Below, piece after piece: positions 9,673-37,502 of a stretch of DNA of 64,000 bases. The translations under genes and the position numbers were made by a program. Source of the stretch: a bacterium (GTDB lineage Bacteria > J088 > JAWLBW01); assembly GCA_041690355.1 (NCBI GenBank), contig JAWLHK010000002.1, positions 62,001 through 126,000 of the forward strand, read 5' to 3'. Under the pieces are notes generated by a model that saw only the letters and a list, made by a program, of their open reading frames with translations, did not search any database and was not told the DNA's origin. Every line of letters starts with the position of its first letter. The stretch's first letter is position 1.

Positions 9673-10157
9673 GTCAGCGCGATCGCCAGATTCTCATGCT
9701 CGGCGGCGTCGTGGCCGGCATCCTTCTCTTCTACCTGCTGCTGCTGCGGCCGCTGGGTAACGCCATCGACGACGCCGAGCAGCGCATCGACGAGCGCCGT
9801 GCCGCGGTCCAGGACATGCGCAGCCTGGCCGGCGAGGCCCGGTCGCTGCGGGCCAGTCTGCCCAAGGACGGCAAGGATCTCAATCTGCTCCCCTACCTGG
9901 AAGGGATTGCGCGCCAGGCCCAGCTGAACACGAACATCGAGTACATGAAGCCCGGCAGCGGTGTCGCCCGCGGCGATCAGCGGCGGCCGTCGGTCGAGCT
10001 CAAGCTCGCCCGCGTGAACCTCAAGCAGCTGACGAACCTGCTCTTCCAGATCGAAGTCCAGGGCCGGTACCCGCTGACCGTCGAAGAGATTCACATCAAG
10101 AAACGCTTCGATGCCCCCGACCTGCTCGACGTCACGCTCGAGGTTTATCAGGGATAG
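9669..10157 (+). CDS. gspM: Type II secretion protein GspM
   Basis: MSQRDR + TM + coiled coil + ferredoxin-like domain (VELKL.RVNLKQLTNLLFQIE); ATGA overlap with gspL. Confidence 0.78.
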   Translation: MSQRDRQILMLGGVVAGILLFYLLLLRPLGNAIDDAEQRIDERRAAVQDMRSLAGEARSLRASLPKDGKDLNLLPYLEGIARQAQLNTNIEYMKPGSGVARGDQRRPSVELKLARVNLKQLTNLLFQIEVQGRYPLTVEEIHIKKRFDAPDLLDVTLEVYQG

Positions 10158-10158
10158 C

Positions 10159-11019
10159 ATGTCGAACCGCCGCCTCTTCATCGAGATCGGGCTCTACGCC
10201 GCGGTGTTCTTCGCCGCCCTGCTGCTGTTCGCCGTGCTGCGGGTTCCTTCGGCGCGCCTCGCCCGGGTCGCCGTGGCCTGGGCCGAGAACGCCGGGTACA
10301 CGCTCGACTACGACGCGGTGAACTCGACGCTGCTCCCCGGTTTCGAGCTCGAGGGGGTGCGGATTTCGCCTCCCGAACCGGGGTCGGGCCCCATGCTCGA
10401 ACTCGACTCGCTGACCGTGCGCACGATGCTGACCCCGCTGTTCCTGGGCCGCGCGGGCGTGCGAGTGAATGCAGACGGGTATGACGGCGACGCAAAAGTG
10501 CTGGTCATGACCCGGGGCGACACGGCGTGGGTGCGCGGCGAGATCGTCGACGTGAATCTGGAGCGCTTCGAGGGGCTGCAGAAGAAACTTCAGGTTCCGC
10601 TCAAGGGAATTGTCGATGCTTCCTGGGACTTCGAGGTCTATCAGGAGATGGTGCGCAACGTCGGTACCGGCGAGATCTCGATCGACGACCTGCGGCTCGA
10701 ACCGGGCAACCTGGCCGGCGCCTTCAAGATTCCCGGCATCGACTTCGGCGACGTCCACGGCGCCGTGCTGCTGGAGAACGGCCGGCTGCTGTTCGACCGT
10801 TTCGCTGGCGACGGGCAGGACGTGAAGATGCAGGTCGAAGGCTCGGTGGCCCTGTCGCAGCCGGTTGCCTACTCGCGCCTCGACCTGACCGTCAAGATGA
10901 CGCTCTCCGAACGCATCGAGCAGGCCCTCGGCTTCGCGCTGCCCATGCTGCGCCTGAACAAGTCGCCGCAGGGCGAATACCTGCGTCAGGTCGGCGGCAC
11001 GCTCGCGGCCCCGCGCTGA
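10159..11019 (+). CDS. gspN: Type II secretion protein GspN (deltaproteobacterial type)
   Basis: N-terminal TM, beta-rich body, C-terminal GTLAAP; position after gspLM. Confidence 0.72.
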   Translation: MSNRRLFIEIGLYAAVFFAALLLFAVLRVPSARLARVAVAWAENAGYTLDYDAVNSTLLPGFELEGVRISPPEPGSGPMLELDSLTVRTMLTPLFLGRAGVRVNADGYDGDAKVLVMTRGDTAWVRGEIVDVNLERFEGLQKKLQVPLKGIVDASWDFEVYQEMVRNVGTGEISIDDLRLEPGNLAGAFKIPGIDFGDVHGAVLLENGRLLFDRFAGDGQDVKMQVEGSVALSQPVAYSRLDLTVKMTLSERIEQALGFALPMLRLNKSPQGEYLRQVGGTLAAPR

Positions 11020-19076: not shown

Positions 19077-19982
19077 ATGGCAGAGCGAAAGAGACTCGGC
19101 GAACTGCTGCTCGAAGGCGGCCTCATCGACGAATACCAGCTGAAGAGCGCCCTCGCTCACCAGAAACAGTGGGGCGGCCGCCTGGGTTCGAACATGGTGA
19201 AGCTCGGCTTCATCACCGAAGACGAACTCGTCTCGTTTCTGAGCTACACCTTTCGCACGCCGGCGGTCAATCTGCATGCCGTGCGCGTGCCCCCCGCCAT
19301 GGTGGCCCTGATCCCGAAAGACGTCGCCAAGAAGTACGGCGTGATCCCCCTGCTGCAGAGCCCCGACAAGAAGAAACTGGTCATCGCCATGAGCGATCCG
19401 ACCAACCTGGCCGCCATCGACGAGCTGAACTTTCTCGTCGGCGCCCGGGTGCTGCCCGTAATCGCCGCCGACACCAGCATCGAAGAGGCCATGGCCCACT
19501 ATTACGACCAGGCCGTGCAGATGAAATTTCTGCCGAACGCGAAGCTGAGCGTCGAGGCCGATATCCTGGCCCGCCCGCCGGCCGAGCTGCCGCGTCGCGC
19601 CCGTAAAGTCGAGAACCTGGCCACCGGCAAGATCGACATCTCCGGCACGGAGGAGGAGGAGGACGTCGTCACCGGCGCCCCCGATGAACCCGACTTCTCG
19701 AACATGAAGCTGGACGACGATGACGACGACCCGACGCTGAACGAGCTGGTGGTCTTCACGGGCGGGCGCCAGAAAACGATACAGCTCGAAGAGGCCAGGG
19801 CCCAGGCCCAGCCCGCCCCCGCGGCTAAGCCGGCTGCAGATCCCTACATGACGCAGACCGTGCTGCGCGCCGGCCTCGACGGCGGCAAACCGACGGCCGA
19901 CCAGCTCGTCATGGCGCTCATTCGCACCCTGATCGACAAAGGGTTCGTCACCAAAGAAGAAATCCTGGCCCAGCTGAAGTGA
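19077..19982 (+). CDS. Stand-alone MshEN (GSPII_E N-terminal) domain protein, putative c-di-GMP receptor
   Basis: RLGELLLEGGLI...QL..AL..Q...GGRLG..MVKLGFITE double motif, then AMSDPTNL; acidic linker; no ATPase domain. Confidence 0.85.
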   Translation: MAERKRLGELLLEGGLIDEYQLKSALAHQKQWGGRLGSNMVKLGFITEDELVSFLSYTFRTPAVNLHAVRVPPAMVALIPKDVAKKYGVIPLLQSPDKKKLVIAMSDPTNLAAIDELNFLVGARVLPVIAADTSIEEAMAHYYDQAVQMKFLPNAKLSVEADILARPPAELPRRARKVENLATGKIDISGTEEEEDVVTGAPDEPDFSNMKLDDDDDDPTLNELVVFTGGRQKTIQLEEARAQAQPAPAAKPAADPYMTQTVLRAGLDGGKPTADQLVMALIRTLIDKGFVTKEEILAQLK

Positions 19983-20845
19983 CCGGCACTGCGACTCCTA
20001 AATCACCCGGCCGGCTGTTCTGGAACCGTTTCCGACACAACCGGCTGGCGGTCGCCGGCGCGGCCATCGTGTTTCTGCTCTTTCTGACGGCGGTCTTCGC
20101 GCGCCTGATCGCGCCGTTCGACCCCGAAGCCATCGATCTGTACAAGGTTCTCCAGCCCCCCTCGGCCGAGCACTGGCTCGGCACCGACGAGCTCGGGCGC
20201 GACGTGTTCAGCCGTATGGTCTTCGGCGCGCGCATCTCGCTCATGGTCGGCCTGCTCTCGGTGGGCATCGCCGTGTTTATCGGCACCTTCTTCGGCGCGA
20301 TGGCGGGCTATTACGGACGCTGGGCCGACACGGTGATCATGCGCTTCGTCGACATCATGCTCAGTTTTCCGACCATCTTTCTCATCATCGCATCGATTGC
20401 TTTTCTGGAGCCGAACATCCTGACGATCATGGCGGTCATCGGGCTGACGAGCTGGATGGGCATCGCGCGCCTGGTGCGGGCTGAATTTCTGTCGCTGCGC
20501 GAGCGGGAGTTCGTGCTCGCCGCGCGGGCGCAGGGGGCGGGCGATTTCCGCATCATCTTCCGCCACATCCTGCCGAACGCGCTCGTGCCGGTCGTCGTGA
20601 CGGCCACCATTGGCGTGGCCGGCGCGATTCTCACCGAGAGCTCACTCAGCTTTCTCGGCATCGGCGTGCAGCCGCCCACGCCGAGCTGGGGTAACATCCT
20701 CACCTCGGGCAAGGACAACATCGACATCGCCTGGTGGATGAGCGTGTTTCCCGGCCTCGCGATTCTCGTCACCGTGCTCGGCTACAACCTGCTCGGCGAG
20801 GGGCTGCGCGACTCGCTCGATCCGCGCCTGCGGGGGAGGAGCTGA
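19979..20845 (+). CDS. oppC: Peptide ABC transporter permease OppC/DppC
   Basis: HWLGTDELGRDVFSR, FVLAARAQGA, HILPN, ESSLSFLGIG, LGEGLRDSLDP. Confidence 0.94.
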   Translation: MTGTATPKSPGRLFWNRFRHNRLAVAGAAIVFLLFLTAVFARLIAPFDPEAIDLYKVLQPPSAEHWLGTDELGRDVFSRMVFGARISLMVGLLSVGIAVFIGTFFGAMAGYYGRWADTVIMRFVDIMLSFPTIFLIIASIAFLEPNILTIMAVIGLTSWMGIARLVRAEFLSLREREFVLAARAQGAGDFRIIFRHILPNALVPVVVTATIGVAGAILTESSLSFLGIGVQPPTPSWGNILTSGKDNIDIAWWMSVFPGLAILVTVLGYNLLGEGLRDSLDPRLRGRS

Positions 20846-21873
20846 TGGCTGCCCCTCTGCTCTCGGTGCGTAACCTGCGCACCTGGTTCCGCGTGGCGCG
20901 GGGCTGGGTGCATGCCGTCGACGACATTTCCTTCGACATTCCCCCCTCGACCATCGTGGGTCTCGTCGGCGAATCGGGAAGCGGCAAGAGCGTCACCGGA
21001 CTCTCTCTGCTGCGGCTCGTGGCGACCCCGCCGGGCAAGTACGTCGGCGGCTCGATTCTGTGGAAGGGGGAGGACCTGCTCCGGCTCTCGCCCGAGGCCA
21101 TGCGCGCCCATCGTGGCAGCGACATCGCCATGATCTTTCAGGAGCCGATGACGAGCCTGAACCCCGTGTTCCGCATCGGCGAGCAGATCGCCGAAGTGCT
21201 CGAGGTGCACACGACGATGAATCGCGCGCAGCGGCGCGAGCGGGTCATCGAGCTGCTGCGCGAGGTCGGCATTCCGGAGCCCGAAGAGCGGTACGAGCAG
21301 TACCCGAATCAGCTTTCGGGGGGCATGCGCCAGCGCGTCATGATCGCCATGGCTCTCGCCTGCAATCCGAAGCTGCTCGTGGCCGACGAGCCGACGACGG
21401 CGCTCGACGTGACGATCCAGGCGCAGATTCTCGAGCTGATCGGCCGCCTCAAGGACAAGTACCAGATGAGCGTGCTGCTCGTGACGCATGACCTGGGGGT
21501 CGTCGCCGAGCTCTGCAGCGAGGTGCTCGTCATGTATGCCGGGCGCATCGTCGAACGCGGGCCTACGGCCGACGTGATTGCGAATCCGCTGCACCCTTAC
21601 ACGCGCGGGCTGCTGAGCTCGCTGCCGCGCGTCGGCATGGGCCGGGCGCGCCTGGAGACGATCCCGGGCATCGTGCCCGATCTGGTGGCGCCGCCGCCGC
21701 GCTGCCGGTTTCTCGAACGCTGCCCGAACCGCATCGATCGCTGCGCGCAGCAGGATCCCTCGCTCGACGAACTGAGCCCGGGCCGCTTCGCGGCCTGTTT
21801 TCACCCCTGTGCGGGGAGCCGTGCGAGTGCGGCGCGCCCGCCGGAGACCGTGACGCCCGATGAGTCTGCTTGA
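20845..21873 (+). CDS. oppD: Peptide ABC transporter ATP-binding protein OppD/DppD
   Basis: [35 protein letters not shown]-terminal Cys cluster; start at the TGATG overlap. Confidence 0.94.
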
Positions 21874-24893: not shown

Positions 24894-26222
24894 TCAGGCT
24901 CGGGAGATCAGCCTGCGGGCGAGAAGGGGCAGCAGCAGCCAGAGAAGGGCCAGCGGCGAAGCGCCTGCGGTGCTGCAATGCCACAGCGGGCCGTTCAGGA
25001 TGCCGCGCGAGGCCTCGGCTTCAGGGGCGGCGTCGGCGGCGGGCTTCCGCTCGGGGGCGACGTATTCGAAGGTTTCCAGCACGGTGCCTGAAAGCCGCTT
25101 CGCGGTGTAGGTGAGCTTGGGGCCGTCGATTTCGATGACCACGTAGTTCTCAACCGATTCCGAAAGCGCCGTCCAATAGTTGCGGCCGTTGCCGTAGAGC
25201 GGCGCGCCGACGCCGGCAGCCACGACATAGACCGTGCCGTCATCCATGCTCGACTGCACCGAGCCCTTGTTGAGCGGAAAACTGCGTTCGTAGTTGTGAT
25301 CATGGCCGTTGAAGACCATGTTGACGTGATAGCGGTCGAACAGCGGTGCCCAGACGCGCTGCAGGTTCGCTTCGCTGCCATGCTTGTTGGACGAGGAGTA
25401 GAAGGGCTGGTGGTTGACCACGAAGATCCACTGCTCGGTGGCGTTCTTCAATTCGTTCTCCAGCCAGGTATACTGCGGACCATCCAGGCGTGACGGGCGC
25501 AGGGCGAAGATGTAGTTGTCGTTCAGGAAGATGAACTTCGCATTGCCGTAGCTGAACGAGTAGTACTGCTCGGCGTCGTCTTCTTCGGGGATATTCTTCG
25601 GGAGCTCGAAGCGCTCGAAGTAATTGTCGGCAAGGGCGTCATGGTTCCCGTACGTCGGCATGAACGGAACGAGACGCATGGTGTCTTCGCCAGCCTTGAA
25701 CCACGCGTCCCATTCCTGTTCTTTCCCCTGCATGGTGGCATCGCCGCTGAAGACGAAGAATTGCGCGTCTTCCTTGCGCATGGCTTCCATGGCACGCCCG
25801 AAGAGTCGATAGTCGCCCCGCGAGTCGCCGAAGGCGATGAAGCGGAACCTGGGCGCGGCGTCTTCGGGCGCGGTCTGAAAGGTGAGGTCGGGAGATACCG
25901 CCCCTGCGTCGTCGCCGACCCGGTAGTGATAGAGCGTTCCGGGCTGCAGCCCGGTCGCATCGGCTGCCCAGAAGCGGCGCGAGGCGCCCGGGTACTCGAT
26001 CTTCCGGGCAGTGATGCGGTCCGTGTACTTGCCGGCCTCGAGACCGTATTCGAGCACACCCGTCGTCGTGGTCGCGCCTGTCGCCCATTGGACCGTCATC
26101 GTCGTTTTCGTATCCCCCTGCCAGGTGAGGTGGATCTGTTCGGGCCCCAGCGCCGCGGCCTCGCCGGGTGTGACGGCCCCCAGGGCACAGAGGAACATAC
26201 TTGTCATCAGGATTCGAAACAT
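24894..26222 (-). CDS. Purple acid phosphatase-like metallophosphoesterase (FN3-like N domain) with a MYXO-CTERM-like tail
   Basis: Signal peptide; PEQIHLTW; FGDSRG, SGD, GNHD, H.PFY, GHDHNYER; C-terminal Cys + TM + RR. Confidence 0.9.
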   Translation of the reverse strand: MFRILMTSMFLCALGAVTPGEAAALGPEQIHLTWQGDTKTTMTVQWATGATTTTGVLEYGLEAGKYTDRITARKIEYPGASRRFWAADATGLQPGTLYHYRVGDDAGAVSPDLTFQTAPEDAAPRFRFIAFGDSRGDYRLFGRAMEAMRKEDAQFFVFSGDATMQGKEQEWDAWFKAGEDTMRLVPFMPTYGNHDALADNYFERFELPKNIPEEDDAEQYYSFSYGNAKFIFLNDNYIFALRPSRLDGPQYTWLENELKNATEQWIFVVNHQPFYSSSNKHGSEANLQRVWAPLFDRYHVNMVFNGHDHNYERSFPLNKGSVQSSMDDGTVYVVAAGVGAPLYGNGRNYWTALSESVENYVVIEIDGPKLTYTAKRLSGTVLETFEYVAPERKPAADAAPEAEASRGILNGPLWHCSTAGASPLALLWLLLPLLARRLISRA

Positions 26223-26224
26223 GG

Positions 26225-27415
26225 CTACTCCAGACGGACCTGCAGCTGCAGGACGGCGGTATTGTTGTGGTATTCGACCCCTTCGAGCTCGGCGACCTTG
26301 CCGTAGGCGAGCTGCAGTTTCTCGCGGCCGCCGTCGAAGTAGAGGTTGGTGCCGATCCATCCGGCCTCGATCTCCTGTTCCTTGACCGTGGCCCCGGCGG
26401 TGTTCAGGTCATATCGCTCGTACCGGAGAACGAACTCCCACCGGTCGGTAACGGCCGCGAAGATTGGCTGCACGTAGAAGCCGCGCTTGTCGAAGGAGGC
26501 GAATCCGGCGGCAGCCGGCGCCTTGACGCGGGCCAGAAGGTATTCCCCTGAAACGCCCATGCGATCCAGATAAGCGCTGACGTCGCCGCCGACGAGCCGC
26601 GTCTCGGCATTCTGGATATCGCCGTTGTAGTTCAATCCGGCGTTCAAACCGAGAGTCAGGCCCGCCGGACGAAATGCGGTGATTTCCGTTTCGTCGACCG
26701 GCGTTCCGAGCGGCGTCCAGGTCAGACGGCCGACATGAAGAAAGGCGTTGTTGATGTTGCGGCTCAGGTTGCGCCCCTCGCCGTTGAAGACGCCGTACGC
26801 GTAGCCGAGCCGTCCGGCGACACTACCGTGCAGCATGACACCGATGTCCCGGCCGGGTGCGATGGCCGCGATGCCGGCGCGGTCGGGCAGGGCCAGCTCG
26901 CCTGTGTGCGCGATCTCCTGGCGACCGAACGGGGCCTTGAACTGCCCTGCGCGCAGGCCCAGGGCCGCCGACGGCCGGTACTCAACCCAGAAATCCAGCG
27001 GCGTCACTTCGACGGCCGCGTCGAGCTTGATGCGGTAGAACACCGCGTCGGCCAGAGTGCCGCGGGCGCCGATTTCGAGCAGCGTCACCCGGAAACCGGA
27101 TTTGCTGTCGGGGAGGCGCGCATCATCCTCGAGGGCCTCGAAGCGGGCTTTTCCGAGCAGCGTCGGCGTAACCCAGGGCGCGAGGGTCGGCGCGACGAAA
27201 GCCGGTGCGACGGCCTCGGGGGCGCGCGGCAGCTCGCCTGCAGTCGCGGGCGCGAAGACTTCGGGCACCGCCGTCGACGGATCTGGGGCCGTGGCTTCCG
27301 TGACCGGTTCCGCAGCCGCGCCGGTCGGGGCGGTGACCGCCCGGGCATATGCGAGCGGTACTCCGGCGAGAAGCGTGATCAAGATAACGAGAGCGGGAAT
27401 GACAGGGTTTTTCAT
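26225..27415 (-). CDS. Phosphate-selective porin OprO/OprP family
   Basis: Signal peptide; GQFKAPFGRQE, GRDIGVMLHG, GVFNGEG; C-terminal beta strand LQVRLE. Confidence 0.8.
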   Translation of the reverse strand: MKNPVIPALVILITLLAGVPLAYARAVTAPTGAAAEPVTEATAPDPSTAVPEVFAPATAGELPRAPEAVAPAFVAPTLAPWVTPTLLGKARFEALEDDARLPDSKSGFRVTLLEIGARGTLADAVFYRIKLDAAVEVTPLDFWVEYRPSAALGLRAGQFKAPFGRQEIAHTGELALPDRAGIAAIAPGRDIGVMLHGSVAGRLGYAYGVFNGEGRNLSRNINNAFLHVGRLTWTPLGTPVDETEITAFRPAGLTLGLNAGLNYNGDIQNAETRLVGGDVSAYLDRMGVSGEYLLARVKAPAAAGFASFDKRGFYVQPIFAAVTDRWEFVLRYERYDLNTAGATVKEQEIEAGWIGTNLYFDGGREKLQLAYGKVAELEGVEYHNNTAVLQLQVRLE

Positions 27416-27459
27416 ACCCTGCAGGGTGCCCGGCGCCTGTGGCAGGAGCATTTCAGGCC

Positions 27460-27536: not shown

Positions 27537-29204
27537 ATGCGTATCTTCACGGCTCTTCTCCTCTCCGTCCTCCTTGCCTGCAGCACCGACCCCGGTCCGC
27601 AGGTTGCGCCCGATGCGGCCCTCCCCGATCTGGACTGCAGAGTCGAGCGTGAGACGACCGAGGGCGCCGTGACGGGCTTCGAGAGCCGCGACGGGCGCTC
27701 CTGCGTCTATCTGGGCGTCCCGTTCGCGCAGCCGCCGGTCGGTGCGCTGCGGTTCGCCCCGCCGCTGCCCCCTGCGAAACGTACGGCCACGCTGCGTGCC
27801 GTCGAGGCCGGCAACGTCTGCCTGCAGCGCACGACGCTCAGCTCGGTGGCCGACGCACCCGATGTCATTCCGGTCTTCGGCGAGGAGGATTGCCTCTATC
27901 TGAACATCTGGCAGCCGGCCGGTGACGGAAAAAAGCCGGTCATGCTCTTCATTCACGGCGGCGCGTTCGTGCTCGGCGCCGGTTCGTGGACGACCTATAA
28001 CGGCGAAGCGCTGGCCCGCCAGGATGTCTTGGTCGTGACCGTCAACTACCGCCTCGGCCCACTCGGCTTTCTGGCGAATCCGGCGCTGCTCGACGAGTCG
28101 CCTGAAGGGGGAACCGGCAACCAGGGGATCCTTGACCAGATCCGCGCCCTCGAGTGGGTGCGCGACAACATTGCGGCTTTCGGAGGCGATCCCGCGAACG
28201 TGACCATCTTCGGCGAGTCGGCGGGGAGCATGAGCGTCTGCACCCTGATGGCGAGCCCGCTGGCCGAGGGCCTCTTTGCCAAGGCCATCCTGGAAAGCGG
28301 CGGCTGCAACGGCGTGGCCCCCCTGACCGTCGGCTATGCCCACGCGGCGAGCTACGCGGTCGACACCGGCTGCAGCGGGGGAACTCCGGCCGACGAACTG
28401 GCGTGCCTGCGCAAGATGGACGCGCACGACATGATCAAGAAGATGGAGTTCGACGTCATCGCCTCGGCCCTCGAACCACATGTCGACGGCGTCGTGCTCA
28501 CCGACGTTCCGCTGAACACGGTGCGCCGCGGCGAGCACAACGTCGTGCCCGTCCTCGGAGGTTCGAACGCCAACGAGGTCCTCCCGGTGTCGCTCGTGAA
28601 TCCCCATTCGTTCCGCCTGAAGACGATGGCCTGGGGCGACTACTACCGCGCGCTGGAGTCGCTCTACGGCGTCACCGATGCGACCGAGCTGCGGGCCCTG
28701 TACGGAAAAGAGGCCGGCTACACGGATCCGTTCGACTCCTGGTATACCCTGGCGTCAGACTTCGTCCTCGGCTGCTCGACCCTGTACGGCGTGCAGGCGG
28801 CGGGGCAGTTTGCCCCGGCGTACCACTACGTCTTCGACTGGCATGCCATGGGCGCCGTGGGCGAGGCGCTGCAGTCGACGCACGCCATCGAGCTGTTCTT
28901 CGTGTTCGGCACCATCGATCACCTCTTCCGCTTCCTGATTCCCGACGAAGAAGTCGATGCGGCCCGCACCCTCGCGCTGCAGACGCAGCAGTTGTGGACC
29001 AGCTTCGCCCGCATGGGAACGCCCACGGCCGACGGGGTGCCCGCCTGGCCGACCGTCGACGAAGGTACGATGATGCTCGGTGTCGACCCGCACGTGAGTC
29101 CGGATGCGAAGCGGGCGGCCTGCGCCTTCTGGGACAGCCGCATGGTGCTGGGCCTCGAGAGCTTCGCGACCGTCCCCAACGCGATCCTCGATCACCTGCC
29201 CTGA
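27537..29204 (+). CDS. Type-B carboxylesterase lipoprotein
   Basis: Lipobox LLAC; YLGVPFAQPPVG.LRF, EDCLYLNIW, HGGAF, FGGDP.NVTIFGESAG, H..EL. Confidence 0.93.
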   Translation: MRIFTALLLSVLLACSTDPGPQVAPDAALPDLDCRVERETTEGAVTGFESRDGRSCVYLGVPFAQPPVGALRFAPPLPPAKRTATLRAVEAGNVCLQRTTLSSVADAPDVIPVFGEEDCLYLNIWQPAGDGKKPVMLFIHGGAFVLGAGSWTTYNGEALARQDVLVVTVNYRLGPLGFLANPALLDESPEGGTGNQGILDQIRALEWVRDNIAAFGGDPANVTIFGESAGSMSVCTLMASPLAEGLFAKAILESGGCNGVAPLTVGYAHAASYAVDTGCSGGTPADELACLRKMDAHDMIKKMEFDVIASALEPHVDGVVLTDVPLNTVRRGEHNVVPVLGGSNANEVLPVSLVNPHSFRLKTMAWGDYYRALESLYGVTDATELRALYGKEAGYTDPFDSWYTLASDFVLGCSTLYGVQAAGQFAPAYHYVFDWHAMGAVGEALQSTHAIELFFVFGTIDHLFRFLIPDEEVDAARTLALQTQQLWTSFARMGTPTADGVPAWPTVDEGTMMLGVDPHVSPDAKRAACAFWDSRMVLGLESFATVPNAILDHLP

Positions 29205-29428
29205 GCCTTCTGGCCGTTTGCTCGATCGTCAACGAATTGAGGACGTACCCTTTCGCGGACACGTTCCGGCGTATCGTAATTCACGCTCGTCCCCTCGCTG
29301 TCGCGCTCCACTCCGCTACGCGCCGTCAGCTCGGGACGAACGGTTCCGGCCCGGCGAATCGTCAATTGTAAATTCGCGTCGCTCGTCACTTGTTTGACTA
29401 ATGGCGTCCGACGCTTGACCATATAGGG

Positions 29429-30973
29429 ATGGCCAAACCCGCAACGCCTTCTCTCGAGCCGCCCCGCAACCCCATCTCTGCGGTCATCGACATCGGCACC
29501 AACTCGGCCCGCATGGAGATCGCCGAGCTGCGCCCCGACGGCTCCATCGTCATCGTCGGCGACGAGAAGGCCTCCATCCGCCTCGGCGACAGCGTATTTC
29601 ACGACGGCGCCATCTCGGGAGACGCATTCGATCGGGCCCTCCAGGCCGTCCTGCGCCTCATCTCGCGGGCCCGCGGCGCCCGGGCCGATCACATTCGCGC
29701 CGTGGCGACCAGCGCCCTGCGCGAAGCCGATAACGGCGCGGAATTCGCGGAACGGGTCGAGAACGAAACCGGCGTTCACATCGAGATCATTCCGGGGACT
29801 GAAGAGGCCCGTCTGATTCACCTCGGCGCCTGCGAAGACTACCCGGGAACCGATCCCGTGCTCGTCTTCGACATCGGCGGGGGCAGCACCGAAATCGCCG
29901 TGGGCCGCGGCGCCGATCTGTGGATGACCAGCCTGCGCATCGGGAGCGCGCGCGTCAGCGAATACTTCCTGCACGCCGATCCGCCGAAGCCCGGCGAGCT
30001 GCGAACCCTCGACCGGTTTCTCGAGAACGCCTTTCTCAAGGCGTGGAAGGATGTGCCCGGCGCGTCCGTGCATCTCGGGACCGCGGGAACCAACGGCGCG
30101 ATCGCCGATGTGCTCAAGCGCGAAGGCAAGGCGTTCACGCTCGATGCGGTGAACGGCCTCTTTGACCGCCTGTCGAGGGCGGATGCGGAGCAACGCCGCG
30201 CGATTCTCGGGCCCAAGGAAGAACATCGCGCCGACATCATTCTCGGCGGGGTCGCCATTGCCCGCGCTTTTCTGCGCGTTTCGGGCGTTCCCGAGATCCG
30301 CTATTCCGGGCGCGGCCTGCGCGACGGCATGCTGGTCGAAGAGGTGCTGCGCGCCCACCTGCGTCCGCGTGAACACGGGGATTCCCGCTCACTGCGCCGC
30401 GCCCGCCTGCTGCAGCTCGGCGACTTCTACCGGTTCGATCGTCCGCATGCGGAACATGTAGCGGCGCTCGCAGGGCGGATCTTCGACCAGCTCGCGCCGC
30501 TGCACGGTCTGGGCGAAGAAGACCGCGATCTTCTCGATGCCGCCGCGCTGCTGCACGACATCGGCCACCACGTCTCCTACGGCAAGCATCACAAGCACAC
30601 GTATTACCTGATCAAGAACTCGGAGCTCGCCGGATTCGACGAGCGCGAGGTGGAACTGGTCGCGAACGTGGCCCGTTACCACAGAAAGGCGCACCCGTCG
30701 GAGCGCCATTCCTCCTACCGCGATCTGGCGAAGCCCGACCGCAAGCGCGTGCAGACACTGGCGGCAATCCTGCGGCTGGCCGATGCCTGCGACCGCCGGC
30801 ACGCGCAGACGGTGAGCGATGTGCGCCTGGCCGTCGCCGACGACCGGGTTGCGCTGCGGCTCGAGGCCGCCGACGACGCCGAGGTCGAGACCTGGCTGAT
30901 TCGCGAGCGCGCGGCCGAGTTGTTCGAATCCGTTTTCCGCCGGGAACTGGTCATCGAAGCGGCGGCCGGCTGA
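29429..30973 (+). CDS. ppx: Exopolyphosphatase / pppGpp phosphohydrolase (Ppx/GppA) with HD domain
   Basis: AVIDIGTNS, VATSALREA, EEARL, DIGGGSTE, RADIILGG, GLRDG, LLHDIG..HHKH..Y. Confidence 0.95.
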   Translation: MAKPATPSLEPPRNPISAVIDIGTNSARMEIAELRPDGSIVIVGDEKASIRLGDSVFHDGAISGDAFDRALQAVLRLISRARGARADHIRAVATSALREADNGAEFAERVENETGVHIEIIPGTEEARLIHLGACEDYPGTDPVLVFDIGGGSTEIAVGRGADLWMTSLRIGSARVSEYFLHADPPKPGELRTLDRFLENAFLKAWKDVPGASVHLGTAGTNGAIADVLKREGKAFTLDAVNGLFDRLSRADAEQRRAILGPKEEHRADIILGGVAIARAFLRVSGVPEIRYSGRGLRDGMLVEEVLRAHLRPREHGDSRSLRRARLLQLGDFYRFDRPHAEHVAALAGRIFDQLAPLHGLGEEDRDLLDAAALLHDIGHHVSYGKHHKHTYYLIKNSELAGFDEREVELVANVARYHRKAHPSERHSSYRDLAKPDRKRVQTLAAILRLADACDRRHAQTVSDVRLAVADDRVALRLEAADDAEVETWLIRERAAELFESVFRRELVIEAAAG

Positions 30974-30998
30974 CCCTTTTTCAATTCTGGACCTTGCC

Positions 30999-31540
30999 AT
31001 GCGTTACCTTGTCGCCGTTCGTCACGCCCAGGCGGTGGAGCCGGATACCGAGGGCTACCGTGACCTGAGCCGGCCGCTCACGGCCAGGGGCCGGCGCCTG
31101 TTCGGCATGGCCGTACGGGGGCTTCGCGACGTGCTGCCCCACGAGGACGTCGCCATTCTTACGAGTCCGCTGGTGCGCGCCTGGCAGACGGCCGAGATCC
31201 TGGGCGAAGCCTGGGACGTGGCTCCGTCGCGGTGCGAGCACCTGGCCCCCGAGGGGGATCTGCGCGGCGTGCTGGCCGAGGCGCGGGCCGCCGGATGCGC
31301 GACCGTGTTCGTCGTGGGCACCGGCCGGATCTCAACGCGTTGATCGCCCGGTGCATCGGGCTGCGAAATCCGGAGCGCATCCGGCTGAAGAAGGGGGGCG
31401 TGGCGCTGGTGGAATTTCCGGAGCGCACGGCGTTCGGAAGCGGCCGCCTCAACGGCCTGCTGGGGGCCGGCCAGCTGGCGCGTATGGACCAACGGCGCGG
31501 GCGGCGGTCTTCGTCCTGGCCCGCGGACGAAGAGGAATGA
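30999..31540 (+). pseudogene. sixA: SixA-like phosphohistidine phosphatase, frameshifted (or a sequencing error)
   Basis: RHAQA...RPLT.RG...TSPLVRAWQTAE in one frame; GHRPDL...LKKGG in another; one base missing at about 31317-31319. Confidence 0.82.
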
Positions 31541-31552
31541 CGTGAGCCAAGG

Positions 31553-32284
31553 CTAGCGGTTGCGGGTCAGCTTCTTCATGCGCGTGCGGTGGCGCAGCCG
31601 GCCGGCAAGCACCTCGCTCACGATGGACCGCACCCGGCGGTGGATGGCCCCCACCGGCTTGGTGCCGTCGAGCACCCTGAAATCGTGCTGCTCGGCCAGG
31701 ACCTGGAACTCCTGCTGCATGCGCGTCTGATACGTGTAGAAGCTGGAGTACATGTCGCCGGACAGGCCGATGTCCATCCCCGACTCCCAGTAGTCGAGAA
31801 ACGGCGTCGCGGCGAAGCGCCGTTCGAGAAGCGTGGTCGGATCGACTCTCAGGTAGAAGACGACGTCGGGACGCGGGGCCGGCGAGAAGACGCCGTCGAC
31901 CCAGGCCGGATCGAGATCGCGCACGCGGCTGCGCGCCATGAGCGTGTAGATGTACCGGTCGGCGAGCACGATGTAGCCGGCCTTGAGGGCCGGGATGATT
32001 TTGTTTTCGACCTGGTCGAAGAGGTCGGTGGCGTAGAAGAGCGCCAGCGTCGCCTTGCCGAGCACGTTGCCCTCCATCGCCTCGTCGAGTTCCTTGGACA
32101 CCAGGTTCGAGCGCTTGAGGCCCATGTCGACCACGGCGTGGCCGGTGTCTTCGAGCCAGTCCTTGAGCAGCTGGATCTGGGTCGAGCGTCCGCTGTTATC
32201 CGGTCCTTCGACGACGACGAGCCGACCGTTGATCTCTTCCGGCGCATTGGGGAGCCGGGTGCCGAAGAATTCGAGCGTCTTCAT
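31553..32284 (-). CDS. Thymidylate-kinase-fold protein B (atypical P-loop)
   Basis: LVVVEGPDNSGRSTQ (K to R), VLADRY, PDVVFYL, YWESGMD. Confidence 0.85.
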   Translation of the reverse strand: MKTLEFFGTRLPNAPEEINGRLVVVEGPDNSGRSTQIQLLKDWLEDTGHAVVDMGLKRSNLVSKELDEAMEGNVLGKATLALFYATDLFDQVENKIIPALKAGYIVLADRYIYTLMARSRVRDLDPAWVDGVFSPAPRPDVVFYLRVDPTTLLERRFAATPFLDYWESGMDIGLSGDMYSSFYTYQTRMQQEFQVLAEQHDFRVLDGTKPVGAIHRRVRSIVSEVLAGRLRHRTRMKKLTRNR

Positions 32285-32976
32285 CCGCGCACCCTGAACT
32301 TCTCGAGGTCGATGGTCTCGGCGACGACCCTGCGCATTTCGGCCTGCTGATCTTCGATGCTCCGTGTCGCGTCGATGACGCGGAAGCCGTGAACCGCCGC
32401 CATCTTTTCGTACTCGTCCATGATCATTCCCTGAAAAATCTCGAAGCTCTTGTAGGGATCGGGGCTCAGATTCATATCCATCCCGGCCTCATGATATTTG
32501 AGCTGCGGGCGCCCCGAGAGAATGCGGTCGAGCGAGACGTGCAGCGGCACGCGGAAGTAGAAGGTGAGTGTCGGCGGCTGGGCAAATCCGTACAGATTGC
32601 GCAGCCATTCGGGGTCGCAGCCCCGGGCCGAGTCGCGCGCGAAGGCCGTATACATGTAACGGTCGGCCAGGACGAGATAGCCGGTGCGCACGAGGGGATG
32701 AATCTGGCGCTCGTAGCGGTCGGCGAAGTCGGTCGCGTGGATGAGCGAGAACGTCGTCGGGGTGAGCAGATGCTCTTTCTTGCCGCGCTTGGTGGCCTTC
32801 TTGACGATGTCCGACGAGTTCCACTCGGTGAAGAACACCCGGTAGTGGTTGATCTCGAGCCACCGCTTCAGAAGATAGATCTGCGTGCTTTTTCCCGAGC
32901 CGTCGATGCCTTCGACGGCAATGAGCGCTCCCGGCTGGCGGGGTCGCGATGTCGAAACCGGAGTCATGGAGTCCAA
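32281..32976 (-). CDS. Thymidylate-kinase-fold protein A
   Basis: LIAVEGIDGSGKSTQ, FTEWN, VLADRY, YHEAGMD; ATGA-coupled to paralogue B. Confidence 0.87.
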   Translation of the reverse strand: MDSMTPVSTSRPRQPGALIAVEGIDGSGKSTQIYLLKRWLEINHYRVFFTEWNSSDIVKKATKRGKKEHLLTPTTFSLIHATDFADRYERQIHPLVRTGYLVLADRYMYTAFARDSARGCDPEWLRNLYGFAQPPTLTFYFRVPLHVSLDRILSGRPQLKYHEAGMDMNLSPDPYKSFEIFQGMIMDEYEKMAAVHGFRVIDATRSIEDQQAEMRRVVAETIDLEKFRVRG

Positions 32977-32990
32977 GGGTAACGCGCAGG

Positions 32991-33008
32991 GATTACCACA
33001 AGGTTACC
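32991..33008 (-). promoter_or_regulatory. 11-bp-period direct repeat matching the motif upstream of the porin
   Basis: GATTACC (32991) and GGTTACC (33002) just upstream of the TMK-like pair. Confidence 0.45.
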
Positions 33009-33071
33009 ATGTCGTGCTTCCGGGGGGGACGGGACGGGCGCCGAAAATATGAAGCGGAATTGAGAAAAAGC

Positions 33072-34472
33072 TCAGTCGTCGCCGGCCAGCCGGTTCAGGC
33101 CGTTGAGGGCGGCCAGCCGGTAGAGCTCCGACAGGGTCGGGTAGTTGAAGACCGTCTCGACGAAGTAGTCGACCGTCCCCTGGAACGCCATGACCGTCTG
33201 GCCGGTGTGAATCAGCTCGCTGGCCCGCTCGCCGAAGATGTGAACGCCGAGCACCTTGCGGGTCTCGCGGTGGAAGATGAGCTTCAGCAGCCCCCAGGTG
33301 TCGCCGTTGATCTGCCCGCGCGCCGTCTCGAAGTAGTGGGCGATGCCGATTTCGTACGGGATACCGGCGGCCATCGCCTCATCTTCGGTCTGGCCCACCA
33401 TGCTGATCTCGGGAATCGTGTAGATGCCGTAGGGGAGCACGTGGCGCAGGCCCGACGGGGCGGGGAGCTCGTCGAAGGCCTTGAGCGCCGCGATGCGCCC
33501 CTGGTCGGTCGACGTCGACGCGAGCGAGGGAAACCCGATGACGTCGCCCACGGCATAGATGTGCGGCTGCTCGGTCTGGTAGTGCTCGTTCACCGTCAGG
33601 TAGCCGCGCGGCGTGACCGAGAGCCCCGCGGCCTCGAGCCCCATGCCTTCGGTGTTGCCGGTGCGCCCCATGGCGAAGAGCAGCTTCTCGGCCGAGATCT
33701 CGCGTCCGTCACTGAGCACGCAGAAGGCGCGGTTGTCGTGGATGCCGATTTCGCCCACGGTCTCTTCGAGGCGCAGAATCGCCCCGCGGCGGCGGAAGTA
33801 GGAGGCGAGCGAGTCGGCGATCTGCCGGTCGGTGAAGCGGACGAGCCGGTCGCGGCTTTCGATGATCGTGACGGCCACCCCGAGCGCGGCGAACATCGAG
33901 GCATATTCGCAGCCGATGACCCCGCCGCCGACGACGATCAGGCTGCGCGGGATGCGGTCGAGCGAGAGGATGGAGTCGCTGTCGAGGATGACCCGTCCGT
34001 CGAAGGGGATGGCCGGCGGGCGCACCGGATGGCTCCCCGTGGCGATCACGATTCGCTCTGCTTCGAGCGTGAGAGGCGGGCCGTCGTGCCGGAGCACGCC
34101 GATGCGGTTCGGCGCCTGAAAAGAGGCGAAGCCGGCGATCGTCTCGACCCCGTTGCGGCGGAACCGGGCGGCGACCTTGGTCGACTCGTTCTGAATGACC
34201 ACCTTCTTGCGGTACATCAGCTCGGTCACGCCGATGTCGCGCTTGAGGTTGACGCTCACGCCGTAGAGCGATCGCTGCTTGAATCCCGCCAGGTACACGG
34301 CGGTCTCGCGTAGCGTCTTCGAGGGTATCGTGCCCGTGTGGATGCAGGCGCCGCCGGGCAGGGGGTCGCGCTCGATCACGGCCACCCGTCTGCCGAGCTT
34401 GGCCGCGGCCAGGGCGGCCTGGACCCCGGCCGGCCCCGAACCGATGACCACCATGTCGTATGTCGTCTGCAT
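33072..34472 (-). CDS. sthA: Soluble pyridine nucleotide transhydrogenase
   Basis: GSGPAG, GGACIHTGTIPSKTLRE (CxxxGT instead of a disulfide), GGGVIGCEYAS, YAVGDVIGFPSL, FNYPTL. Confidence 0.92.
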   Translation of the reverse strand: MQTTYDMVVIGSGPAGVQAALAAAKLGRRVAVIERDPLPGGACIHTGTIPSKTLRETAVYLAGFKQRSLYGVSVNLKRDIGVTELMYRKKVVIQNESTKVAARFRRNGVETIAGFASFQAPNRIGVLRHDGPPLTLEAERIVIATGSHPVRPPAIPFDGRVILDSDSILSLDRIPRSLIVVGGGVIGCEYASMFAALGVAVTIIESRDRLVRFTDRQIADSLASYFRRRGAILRLEETVGEIGIHDNRAFCVLSDGREISAEKLLFAMGRTGNTEGMGLEAAGLSVTPRGYLTVNEHYQTEQPHIYAVGDVIGFPSLASTSTDQGRIAALKAFDELPAPSGLRHVLPYGIYTIPEISMVGQTEDEAMAAGIPYEIGIAHYFETARGQINGDTWGLLKLIFHRETRKVLGVHIFGERASELIHTGQTVMAFQGTVDYFVETVFNYPTLSELYRLAALNGLNRLAGDD

Positions 34473-34491
34473 CCGGCTTGCGCTCCGTGCC

Positions 34492-35295
34492 TCAGGATGC
34501 GGCCGCGACCGCTCGTCCCTGGAAGCCCCAGCGGGTGCGCACGACCCGGTCGAGCGCGCCGAACACGAAGCGGTCGAAGGCGAGCCCGACGGCGACGATG
34601 ACGAGCATGACGGCAAGGAGAAGGGCCGTGTCGCCCGCCGCGCGCCCGCTCGACAGCAGCTGGCCGAGGCTGGCGGTCGAAACGATCAGCTCGGCCCCCA
34701 TCAGGCTGCGCCAGGCGAAGCTCCACCCGAGCTTCAGGCCGGTGGCGATGGCCGGAAAGGCGGCGGGCAGAATGACCTGGCAGTACAGGCGGCAGCCGCG
34801 CGCGCCGAGGACCTCGCCCGCCCGGTAGTAAAGGGGGGGCACGTTGCGCACGGCGTCTTCGGTCGAAACGGTGATCGCCAGAAAGGAGCCCATCACGGTC
34901 ACGAACAGGATGGCCCCCTCGCCGGCGCCGAACCAGAGTAGCGCGAGCGGCAGCCAGCTGATGCTCGGGAGGGCCTGCAGCCCGCTCATGAGCGCGCCGA
35001 GCGTGTTCTTGACCGGACGGCTCGCGGCGAGCACGGTGCCGAGCACGACGCCGGCGCCGATGGACAGGCCGTAGCCGACGACGAGGCGCCGCAGGCTGGC
35101 CAGAAGCGCTTCGGGCAGGCGCCCCGAGCGCAGGCCCTGCGCCAGGGAGTCTGCGACGTCGGTGGGTGAAGCGAACAGGTTGCCCGTATAGCCGCCGAGC
35201 CGGAAGAAGCCGTCCCAGAGAACGAGCACGGCGGCGAGAAACAGGAACCGTTGCACCCAGACCTTCTGCAGCCACGTTGCCATAACCAGTTCCAT
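34492..35295 (-). CDS. ABC transporter permease, TauC/SsuC (nitrate/sulfonate/taurine) type
   Basis: SL.RL..GY, LQALPSISWLPLALLWFG, EAA-like RAGEVLGA, AWRSLMGAE. Confidence 0.88.
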   Translation of the reverse strand: MELVMATWLQKVWVQRFLFLAAVLVLWDGFFRLGGYTGNLFASPTDVADSLAQGLRSGRLPEALLASLRRLVVGYGLSIGAGVVLGTVLAASRPVKNTLGALMSGLQALPSISWLPLALLWFGAGEGAILFVTVMGSFLAITVSTEDAVRNVPPLYYRAGEVLGARGCRLYCQVILPAAFPAIATGLKLGWSFAWRSLMGAELIVSTASLGQLLSSGRAAGDTALLLAVMLVIVAVGLAFDRFVFGALDRVVRTRWGFQGRAVAAAS

Positions 35296-35390
35296 AACCA
35301 GTCAATGTACCATAGTCGTCCCCTCGCGTCGCTTCCGTGGATACCGGCGGCGGGCGGCTGCTGGTACCCTGTAGGCTTGCAGAACCTGTC

Positions 35391-37502
35391 ATGGCTGAAC
35401 TGAGCGCACATCACCGGGCGGAACTTTTCGACCTGCTGGGCGAACCGATGCTCCCCGGGTCCGATGCCGAGCTGCGGGCCGTGCAGGAAAACCGGGTAAC
35501 CCGGCAGGCGCTCGTGCGGGCCCTCATCGAGATCAAAGGCGTGCACGGCGTGCCCGCCGCGGGCGAGTGGGCCGAGGCGCATCTCTTCGATCGCGTTCCG
35601 CTCGACCGGGCGCTCGCGTGGAACTTTCTGCCGCTGGTGGAACTGGACGGATGCGCCTATGGCATCGCTCCCGAGCGCGGCGCTCCGGATGCCGAGGCCC
35701 TCGCCACCGCCGGTCTGCGCCCCATGCCCGTGGGCACGCATCCCGATCTGCCCGCCCTCGTGCGGTCGCTCGACGAGGTGCTGCAGCGCTACCGCGTGGG
35801 GAACCGGAAGTTCGGCGAGTTTCTGGTCGCCGGCGGTTACGTCGACGCCGCCCAGGTCGAGCGGGCCGTCGCCTTCGCGGGTGAACACGGGCTGCGCCTG
35901 GCGGGCGCGCTGGTGCGCCTTCGCTTTCTGTCCGAAGAACTGGCGATCGAGCTGCTCGCGTCGTTTCTCGACCTCCCCTACTACGATGTCGCCCGCATTC
36001 TCGAGCTTGCCGACGCCGAGGTCGTGCGCTGCGTGCCGCGCAGCTTCGCCCGCGCCAACGCGATTCTCGCCCTGCGCCGCGAGGGCGAGGCCGTGCGCGT
36101 GGTCACGAGCCGCCCCGAGAACGTGCAGGTGCTCGACGACGTCGCCAAGGCCGCGCACGCCAGGCACGCCCACCTGGCCGTCGCCGGCGAAGTGGCCCTG
36201 CTGAACCTGCTCGATCTGTTTTACGAGGCTAATCCCGAAGACCGGATGCTCGTCGAGCTCCCCGGCGAGACCCCGGAGGCCGAAGCCCAGCGCGCCGACG
36301 TGCCGCGGCTGGTCGAGTACCTGCTGCTCACGGGGGTGCGGCGGCGGGCGAGCGACATTCACATCGAGTGCTACGACGACCGGGTCGAACTGCGCTACCG
36401 CATCGATGGCGTGCTGCACCCGGCCCCCGACGCGCCGCTCAACCTGCGTAACGTGCGCCCCGTGATCGCCGCCTTCAAGGTGGCGGCCGGCATGGACATC
36501 GCCGAACGCCGCCGCCCGCAGGACGGCGCGATCCGCCGCCGCTACCGCGAGGGGACGGTGGATTTTCGCGTCGCCGCGCAGCCGACCATCCGCGGCGAGA
36601 ATCTGGTGCTGCGCATTCTGAACCAGACGCAGAGCGTGCCCCGGCTTGCCGACCTGGGTTTCCCGTCGGGCACCCTCGATCGCTTCGAGCGCCTCATCCG
36701 CAATCCCCAGGGCCTCATCCTGCTGACCGGGCCCACCGGCTGCGGCAAGACGACCACCCTCTATTCCGTTCTGCAGCAGCTGCGCGGCATGGACGTGAAG
36801 ATCGTCACCGCCGAAGACCCGGTCGAATACGCCATCGACGGCATTCAGCAGAGCCAGGTGCACGACGCCATCGGCAACACCTTCAACCGCTTTCTGCGCG
36901 CCTTTCTGCGCCAGGATCCCGACGTCATCCTGATCGGCGAGATCCGCGATGCCGAGACGGCCGAGATGACGATCCGGGCGGCGCTCACCGGCCACCTGAT
37001 CTTCAGCACGCTGCACGTGAACGAAGCGGTCGGCGTCGTGCGGCGCCTCACCGACCTCGGCCTCGAATCCAACCTGATTTCGCAGACGCTGCTCTGCGTG
37101 GTCAGCCAGCGTCTCGCGCGCCGCAACTGCGCCCGCTGCGCCGCCCCCTACCAGCCCGATGCAGACCTGGTGGGGGAATTCTATCCGGAAGGCCTTCCGG
37201 CCGGCGCCACCTTCCGTAAGGGTACCGGCTGCCCGGCCTGCGACCACACGGGCTACCGCGGCCGGCTCGCGCTCGTTGAGTACTGGGAACCCGACGACGC
37301 CGTGCGCGCCCTGATCGATCGGCGTGCCGAGACCGAAGACCTGCGCGCGCAGGCCCTGGCCTCGGGCATGCACGTCCTCTTCGGCGATGCGCTTGAAAAG
37401 GCCGAAGCGGGGCTCACGACGCTCGAAGAGCTGGCCGCGGTCGTGCCGTTCGAGCAGATCGTCCGCTACCGCCGCGCCGTCCGTTTCCCGACACCGGCAT
37501 AA
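35391..37502 (+). CDS. GspE/PilB-family secretion/pilus assembly ATPase with an MshEN-like domain
   Basis: ASDIHIE, MDIAERRRPQDG, GPTGCGKTT, LRQDPDVILIGEIRD, tetra-Cys CARC/CPAC, GYRGR. Confidence 0.92.
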   Translation: MAELSAHHRAELFDLLGEPMLPGSDAELRAVQENRVTRQALVRALIEIKGVHGVPAAGEWAEAHLFDRVPLDRALAWNFLPLVELDGCAYGIAPERGAPDAEALATAGLRPMPVGTHPDLPALVRSLDEVLQRYRVGNRKFGEFLVAGGYVDAAQVERAVAFAGEHGLRLAGALVRLRFLSEELAIELLASFLDLPYYDVARILELADAEVVRCVPRSFARANAILALRREGEAVRVVTSRPENVQVLDDVAKAAHARHAHLAVAGEVALLNLLDLFYEANPEDRMLVELPGETPEAEAQRADVPRLVEYLLLTGVRRRASDIHIECYDDRVELRYRIDGVLHPAPDAPLNLRNVRPVIAAFKVAAGMDIAERRRPQDGAIRRRYREGTVDFRVAAQPTIRGENLVLRILNQTQSVPRLADLGFPSGTLDRFERLIRNPQGLILLTGPTGCGKTTTLYSVLQQLRGMDVKIVTAEDPVEYAIDGIQQSQVHDAIGNTFNRFLRAFLRQDPDVILIGEIRDAETAEMTIRAALTGHLIFSTLHVNEAVGVVRRLTDLGLESNLISQTLLCVVSQRLARRNCARCAAPYQPDADLVGEFYPEGLPAGATFRKGTGCPACDHTGYRGRLALVEYWEPDDAVRALIDRRAETEDLRAQALASGMHVLFGDALEKAEAGLTTLEELAAVVPFEQIVRYRRAVRFPTPA

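Follow-up and report, generated by a model that had tools for sequence, protein, structure and literature searches.

The 64,000-nucleotide stretch of bacterial DNA considered here (the window; contig JAWLHK010000002.1 of assembly GCA_041690355.1, GTDB lineage J088) carries two adjacent genes, called A and B below, which by sequence comparison are orthologues of the two subunits of PPK3, a recently described polyphosphate (polyP) kinase. A (32281–32976, minus strand; PF02223, 68.2 bits) corresponds to the catalytic subunit, cPPK3, and B (31553–32284, minus strand; PF02223, 75.3 bits) to its partner, rPPK3. Read from a TTG, A has 231 amino acids (aa); an ATG at 32967, probably the true start, gives the 228-aa form present in the protein collection (P0001). 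B has 243 aa, and its start overlaps the stop of A as ATGA. With good probability, and by analogy with an archaeal enzyme, A and B encode a bacterial PPK3 in which A is catalytic and B its partner, the polyP being degraded by the product of a neighboring exopolyphosphatase gene (ppx).

A Pfam scan (E ≤ 0.01) gave Thymidylate_kin (PF02223) as the sole family for both proteins. On the NCBIfam equivalog for dTMP kinase, TIGR00041 (cut-off 83.25 bits), A scores 78.8 and B 80.0 bits, both just below. The P-loop is GIDGSGKST in A and GPDNSGRST in B, with Arg in place of Lys. Both carry a DRY motif (D109-R110-Y111 in B) and share the motif Y-[HW]-E-[AS]-G-M-D (KYHEAGMD in A, DYWESGMD in B), conserved in A-type and B-type members alike over 81 aligned pairs. 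Residues that bind dTMP were compared at one motif, TREP: A has FTEWNSS at this site and B has GLKRS, where the canonical Tmk of the same genome has TREPGGT. An initial annotation of the window had already described the ATGA-coupled paralogues of thymidylate kinase (TMK) fold with these P-loops, the missing TREP in both, and the motif they have in common, and all of this was confirmed. Assignment to TIGR00041 as dTMP kinases was rejected, with scores under 83.25 bits and TREP absent; so was membership in PPK2, with no match to PF03976 for A, for B, or for any other protein of the genome.

Convergent (tail to tail) with the pair are two plus-strand genes. The first, ppx (29429–30973), encodes a long-form exopolyphosphatase of the Ppx/GppA family of 514 aa (Ppx-GppA 187.1, Ppx-GppA_III 113.5, HD 48.2 bits); against TIGR03706 it scores 225 bits, under that model's cut-off. 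The second (30999–31540) is a sixA-like histidine phosphatase gene, frameshifted as assembled. Its N-terminal ORF (30999–31343; His_Phos_1 33.2, TIGR00249 29 bits) and its C-terminal part, in the frame of ORF 31232–31540, are separated by a one-base shift at about 31316–31319, in a G-rich run directly ahead of the conserved GH motif. With 20 SixA orthologues as tblastn queries, the majority of rows change frame at region positions 367–370, before the same motif. The break could be that of a real pseudogene or an assembly error; either is possible. The initial annotation had the pair converging on ppx and sixA, as found here, and had missed the break in the sixA frame. A promoter and terminator scan of 29000–35500 yielded no promoter-like sites and three terminator-like sites, compared with 3.5 expected from shuffles, and is uninformative on operon structure.

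The source genome (4.64 Mb in 42 contigs) is 100% complete. A profile search for PPK1, the PPK1 C-domain, and PPK2 (PF03976) found none in the window or in the whole genome, extending to the latter what had been noted for the former. A canonical tmk is present on another contig (C20:58079–58621; PF02223 163.8 bits, TIGR00041 173.7 bits against the cut-off of 83.25, with TREPGGT), so the A–B pair is not the only tmk, a point the initial annotation had listed for checking. Given this separate tmk and the absence of PPK1 and PPK2, the pair appears to be the only recognizable polyP kinase of its genome, as judged by sequence profiles. A genome-wide search found no CHAD gene, and a second, shorter Ppx-GppA gene lies elsewhere. 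The lineage is thinly sampled: among 30 relatives, one belongs to the same family and three to the same phylum. In the nearest, same-family relative (G301/G005), whose A is 83% identical, PPK2 is present in two-domain form and PPK1 is absent; the three same-phylum genomes have no A-type match at E ≤ 1e-30.

PPK3 was described in Sulfolobus acidocaldarius (Hofmann et al., JBC 2026, PMC12995831; preprint 2024, 10.1101/2024.08.28.610084). According to the main text, Saci_2019 (cPPK3) converts ATP to polyP and runs the opposite reaction, from polyP and ADP to ATP, ~50-fold faster; Saci_2020 (rPPK3) is inactive alone and activates Saci_2019 at 1:1, in an alpha2-beta2 complex. Neither has dTMP kinase activity, which is found in a third paralogue. 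The PPK3 clade is presented there as mainly bacterial dTMPK paralogues with PPX, SixA, and CHAD neighbors and a canonical dTMPK elsewhere (PMC12995831). The initial annotation had proposed an unrecognized enzyme and had drawn on the fold of PPK2. Neither point stands: the family, with its bacterial members and its PPX/SixA/CHAD neighborhoods, is already in print (PMC12995831), and it is a branch of the dTMP kinase family, not of PPK2. The pair matches the PPK3 family of that work, which already covers what the annotation had proposed. A literature search found no assay of a bacterial PPK3 member, and found the family's terms used in this sense only in the PPK3 paper and its preprint.

Orthology was examined by pairwise scores, by phylogeny, and by structure. 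A matches STK_15430 of Sulfurisphaera tokodaii, a cPPK3 homologue (PDB 2plr/5h70), at 218 bits (E 1.1e-63, ~49% identity), compared with 45.6 bits or less for canonical TMKs; B matches 2plr at 126.7 bits, compared with 48.9 bits for the best canonical TMK. The A-type ORF of one locus, L088, is the PDB chain 2plr_A itself (464.5 bits, residues 1–212 vs. 2–213). Eight Sulfolobaceae-type loci came from a sample of 251 genomes of the phylum to which a Nitrososphaera locus belongs; all eight have the order ppx, A-type, B-type, and six have sixA upstream. A maximum likelihood tree was built from 71 rows (33 A-type, 32 B-type, and six canonical TMKs from the same genomes; one very long-branch row, L108, was left out). 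The canonical TMKs split off from the pair clade with support of 100/99. Within the B clade (99/96), the rPPK3-type rows of the Sulfolobaceae sit on a long branch of 3.16 changes per column; the A-type and Sulfolobaceae cPPK3 rows fall together on one side of a branch supported at 90/62. These scores and the tree identify A as an orthologue of cPPK3 and B as an orthologue of rPPK3, as far as sequence relationships go. For B, an AlphaFold2 model (pLDDT 92.5) had 2plr_A as its top Foldseek match (TM 0.90, target-normalized; 36% identity), followed by ordinary TMKs.

Active-site states were counted by column in an alignment of 81 A-type and 81 B-type sequences, from the window and 80 related loci. 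All 81 A-type sequences have the P-loop Lys and the DRY motif; K29, R106, TEWNSS, K66, H80, R87, R114, R118, R151, R156, and K160 are invariant or nearly so. All 81 B-type sequences have Arg in the P-loop, and all have DRY; the TREP site reads G-L-[RK]-R-S. Conserved in at least 78 of 81 each are D29, G32, R33, S59, D109-R110-Y111, R118, R122, R155, E167, and D171. At three positions where the A-type is invariant (R87, R156, K160; 81 sequences), the B-type mostly has Q, N, or D; these positions may be among the basic polyP-cleft residues that the PPK3 paper describes as conserved in cPPK3 and not in rPPK3. B was also compared, without a profile, with 1.84 billion representatives at 50% identity, of which 162 matched at E ≤ 1e-30. 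In the B-type regions of the best 150, the P-loop position is Arg in 82, Cys in six (P0160, P0167, P0168, P0169, P0179, and P0200), His, Val, Thr, or Ser in one each, and Lys in one, with 19 fragments unresolved. The sole Lys among the 93 resolved B-type regions belongs to a NUDIX fusion. The distribution indicates that Lys is avoided at this position in B-type sequences, not randomly lost.

Replacement of the P-loop Lys by Arg usually abolishes phosphoryl transfer, and it is from this change alone that we infer B to be inactive, since its DRX arginine is kept. The paper explains the inactivity of rPPK3 by loss of the catalytic DRX arginine (PMC12995831, section 7). B does not show this loss: D-G-Y was found only in the eight Sulfolobaceae-type partners. 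The paper's main text does not mention a P-loop Lys-to-Arg substitution in the partner subunit, although its supplementary figures or data may hold it; relative to that main text, the combination of a retained DRY and a P-loop Arg in B is new.

By analogy with the S. acidocaldarius enzyme (SaPPK3), A would transfer terminal phosphates reversibly between polyP and ADP/ATP by way of its P-loop lysine, DRY arginine, and basic lid, with polyP bound where true thymidylate kinases bind dTMP. It would favor the formation of ATP from polyP and ADP unless the ATP/ADP ratio were high. B, a paralogue that is probably non-catalytic, with its P-loop Lys changed to Arg and basic lid and groove residues lost, would bind A and activate or organize it. 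The convergent ppx would convert polyP to Pi, and the locus as a whole would be a module to make, use, and break polyP. Activity, direction of reaction, and the part played by B are thus all modeled on the archaeal enzyme. The initial annotation had likewise suggested a catalytic and a regulatory TMK-fold subunit acting together on polyP, a proposal that gains support from the orthology with cPPK3 and rPPK3, from the published archaeal biochemistry, from the canonical tmk elsewhere and the lack of PPK1 and PPK2 in this genome, from the linkage to polyP genes in 41 of 80 related loci, and from predicted binding.

The role of B is where the nearest competing explanation enters. B could be a ligand-binding subunit, for a polyP chain or a nucleotide, instead of a dead scaffold, and the bacterial enzyme could be mechanistically unlike SaPPK3. 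In that case the P-loop Arg, the DRY arginine, and R58, R118, R122, and R155 might bind polyP, for processivity or hand-over, or sense nucleotide. The strong conservation of its active-site positions (each in at least 78 of 81 B-type sequences), the prevalence of Arg over Lys at the P-loop position (82 to 1 among the 93 resolved regions), and the placement of the Sulfolobaceae partners, which lack the DRX arginine, on a long derived branch inside the B clade are all as this would predict. Against it stand the usual effect of a P-loop Lys-to-Arg change on phosphoryl transfer, the absence from B-type sequences of the basic lid and groove residues found in every A-type sequence, and the variability in B of the sites matching the invariant Q211 and R215 of A near the C-terminus. 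We consider this unlikely as a replacement for the reading of B as an activating partner. A broader proposal is somewhat less doubtful, while still tentative: that the common form of the PPK3 partner, bacterial or from Nitrososphaera, is conserved for binding a phosphate chain or a nucleotide, its P-loop Lys systematically replaced (by Arg, rarely Cys or His) and its DRY arginine and other phosphate-binding residues kept, and that organisms which, like this one, have neither PPK1 nor PPK2 depend on the heteromer alone for net polyP synthesis. If so, B might hold or feed polyP, or sense energy charge, for the catalytic subunit.

Association of the two subunits was approached by complex modeling, as the initial annotation had recommended. 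A 1:1 complex of A and B was predicted with an ipSAE of 0.66 (runs 0.62, 0.67, and 0.66; the best of three controls reached 0.00), a value that likeness to solved TMK homodimers may explain; 58 of 80 solved complexes reach the mark applied to this score, as do 2 of 110 mismatched pairs. Contacts agree by at least 94% between runs, and partner pLDDT is at least 87. The predicted interface comprises residues 56–89 and 118–130 of A and 60–94 and 124–135 of B, and resembles what we take to be the helix interface of solved TMK homodimers. Binding of A to B is therefore predicted, perhaps as no more than an echo of those structures. Natural fusions offer independent support for an association. One protein of 460 aa (P0121) is an A–B fusion, and four of 621–696 aa combine an A-type domain, a degenerate B-type domain, and Ppx-GppA domain III/HD. 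Fused representatives of all kinds are P0121, P0139, P0155, P0159, P0238, P0264, and P0205; other fusions join a NUDIX domain to a TMK-like domain, or a TMK-like domain to an APH-type kinase.

Relatives of A are numerous, with at least 8000 candidates at E ≤ 1e-10. The best 120 are 63–84% identical (one, at 100%, is the window's own protein), and all those that carry a name are called “dTMP kinase.” The species-genome collection has at least 570 relatives of A (570 of the 600 pattern matches listed), of which 80 loci were kept for the counts of neighborhoods and alignments. They include bacteria of the Verrucomicrobiota (among them Chthoniobacter flavus), Acidobacteriota, Bacteroidota, Thermodesulfobacteriota (Geobacter argillaceus), Sumerlaeota, KSB1, Zixibacteria, and others, and loci with the archaeal labels Nitrososphaera, Thermoplasmatota, and Halobacteriales. 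One of the 80 (L075/G003) is labeled as an Akkermansia muciniphila metagenome-assembled genome and listed at 4.1 Mb, presumably larger than expected for that species, which casts doubt on the label or the bin. In all 80 loci an A-type gene is directly followed by a B-type gene, an arrangement that can therefore not be due to chance.

For the neighbors, flanking ORFs were clustered and representatives scanned against Pfam. PPX was found in 39 of the 80 loci, CHAD in 27, and SixA in 20, and 41 loci have one or more of these; the linkage to polyP genes that the initial annotation had wished to see surveyed thus exists in about half. Other recurrent neighbors are a cytidine deaminase (28/80), an OmpR-type response regulator (17/80; L041 and 16 others), an ABC ATPase (13/80), a histidine kinase (12/80), and a ROK-family kinase (10/80; L013 and nine others). 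PolyP glucokinases are ROK-family enzymes. The cytidine deaminase gene lies divergently upstream of the pair, and only one of the 28 loci with it also has a polyP neighbor. The remaining 39 loci, with no polyP gene in their flanks, are mostly of a Chthoniobacter type (L006, L008, L016, L023, L029, L031, L036, L042, L048, L050, L058, and others). Most of the Chthoniobacter-type genomes tested carry both PPK1 and PPK2, and the role of the pair may differ there.

Polyphosphate kinases were counted in 50 of the 80 pair-bearing genomes, chosen non-randomly for longer loci and for diversity. PPK2 is present in 41 and PPK1 in 16; both are absent from seven. The source genome is thus in the minority in which PPK3 stands alone. 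The idea that the pair fills the ppk slot holds for that genome, which has neither PPK1 nor PPK2, and fails as a general rule; the anti-correlation with ppk1 and ppk2 that the initial annotation had predicted does not hold in this sample. A general replacement of PPK1 and PPK2 by PPK3 was accordingly rejected as regards PPK2. In Geobacter argillaceus (L051; G004, contig C24), a two-domain PPK2 gene (8887–10326) lies ~9 kb from the PPK3 pair (19549–20848). With PPK1 there is a weaker pattern: where ppx is adjacent to the pair, PPK1 is absent from 28 of 33 genomes, and where it is not, PPK1 is present in 11 of 17. This fits the suggestion of an in-situ replacement of PPK1 (PMC12995831). Because many of the genomes are close kin, it is not an independent test.

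Several further genes of the window lie near the pair. Ninety-five bp upstream of A, on the same strand, is sthA, for a soluble pyridine nucleotide transhydrogenase (33072–34616, minus strand; NF003585, 621 bits). The order sthA-A-B with a convergent ppx recurs in the family-level relative L005 and in none of the other 79 loci. Beyond ppx are genes for a secreted metallophosphoesterase of purple acid phosphatase type (24894–26360, minus strand) and for a homologue of phosphate-selective porins O and P (26225–27451, minus strand). The genes between 24894 and 27451 form a phosphate-scavenging context beside the polyP module.

A number of observations weigh against the pair being a working PPK3 of the archaeal kind. 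Function is being transferred across a considerable distance, A being ~50% and B only 33–35% identical to the archaeal subunits. B keeps the DRX arginine to whose loss the paper ascribes the inactivity of the characterized rPPK3. In the assembly sixA is interrupted, and CHAD is absent genome-wide. Nearly half of the related loci (39/80) have no polyP gene in their flanks, and the frequency of PPK2 in pair-bearing genomes undercuts the argument from a vacant ppk slot in general. The resemblance of the predicted interface to TMK homodimers means that the modeling may have passed for that reason. Finally, the preprint mentions in one passage an earlier report that describes the S. tokodaii homologue as an unusual thymidylate kinase.

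Some of these same points could be taken to mean that A and B are real nucleoside monophosphate kinases, using ATP and acting on dTMP or a broader range of substrates, with linkage to ppx being incidental. Both match the thymidylate kinase family only, their relatives are publicly named dTMP kinase, and some cPPK3 orthologues exceed the NCBIfam dTMP kinase cut-off. The titles of the S. tokodaii PDB entries say dTMP kinase, and the preprint cites an earlier account of unusual TMK activity. The 28 loci with a cytidine deaminase, only one of them polyP-linked, and the 39 loci with no polyP neighbor would also be accommodated. However, the genome has its canonical tmk, TREP is replaced in both subunits, and the pair clade is split from canonical TMKs with 100/99 support; among the archaeal proteins, Saci_2019 and Saci_2020 have no dTMP kinase activity and the third paralogue does (PMC12995831). 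Such a function for the pair is very improbable. Least credible of all is a decaying, non-functional remnant of a polyP metabolism that is being dismantled, for which the broken sixA frame, the absence of CHAD, PPK1, and PPK2, and the lack of sixA between B and ppx in L005 (a 109-bp gap) might be cited. Against it, A, B, and ppx are uninterrupted and full-length, with every residue that is invariant in the family, A and B are still coupled through ATGA, and a single-base assembly error in the G-rich run could account for the break in sixA.

The current naming of these proteins has consequences. In NCBIfam release 20.0, the PPK3-type proteins scanned match only the dTMP kinase models. The A-type ORFs of L088, L087, and L050 score 107, 105.8, and 85.3 bits on the dTMP kinase equivalog, above its cut-off, so automatic annotation will name such cPPK3 orthologues dTMP kinase. 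As long as this persists, annotation-based surveys both of polyP metabolism and of tmk copy number will be systematically off. PolyP kinases govern how phosphate is stored, how stress is tolerated, and how energy is buffered, and genomes without PPK1 or PPK2 have been taken to lack the ability to make polyP; here is a complete bacterial genome, from a sparsely sampled phylum, in which PPK3 is the only candidate. The family is apparently more widespread in bacteria than the “a few bacteria” of the paper's wording (PMC12995831), with at least 570 hits in many phyla and 162 B representatives. Relative to the paper's main text, the points added are how the bacterial partner differs in its active site, how broadly the family occurs among bacteria, its frequent coexistence with PPK2, the fusions, and the persistent name dTMP kinase. 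The distinct active-site state of the bacterial partner may offer a handle on how the PPK3 family is regulated.

Several known systems can be compared with the window's pair. We take the source bacterium to be a mesophile, unlike S. acidocaldarius. As in SaPPK3 (Saci_2019/Saci_2020) as described, there are adjacent TMK-fold paralogues beside ppx and sixA, the catalytic one first and the partner second; a canonical dTMP kinase is encoded at another site, and neither PPK1 nor PPK2 is present. Unlike SaPPK3, the pair is bacterial, its ppx and sixA genes are convergent with it instead of preceding it in a shared operon, and CHAD is missing from the genome. In the tree, A and B group with the Sulfolobaceae-type pairs, each in the corresponding sub-clade, and TEWNSS, GKK, and DRY of the A-type are shared; B differs from the Sulfolobaceae-type partners in combining the DRX arginine with a P-loop Arg, where these have D-G-Y and a P-loop K (four) or R (four). 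The closest solved structure to both A and B is STK_15430 of Sulfurisphaera tokodaii (PDB 2plr, 4nzy, 4rzx, 5h70), which was solved alone, without a partner heteromer, and titled dTMP kinase, so that the A–B interface is a prediction only.

With canonical Tmk, A and B have in common the fold, the P-loop, the DRY/DRF motif, and the lid; they differ from it in the replacement of TREP, in scoring under the equivalog cut-off, and in forming a separate clade (100/99). The two-domain class II PPK2 (P. aeruginosa PA3455) is similar in design, in that an active P-loop module is joined to an inactive paralogous module serving in oligomerization, and in its dependence on polyP (PMC12995831). It belongs to another family, however, its modules are fused, and its substrate is AMP or GMP, not ADP (PMC12995831, section 9).

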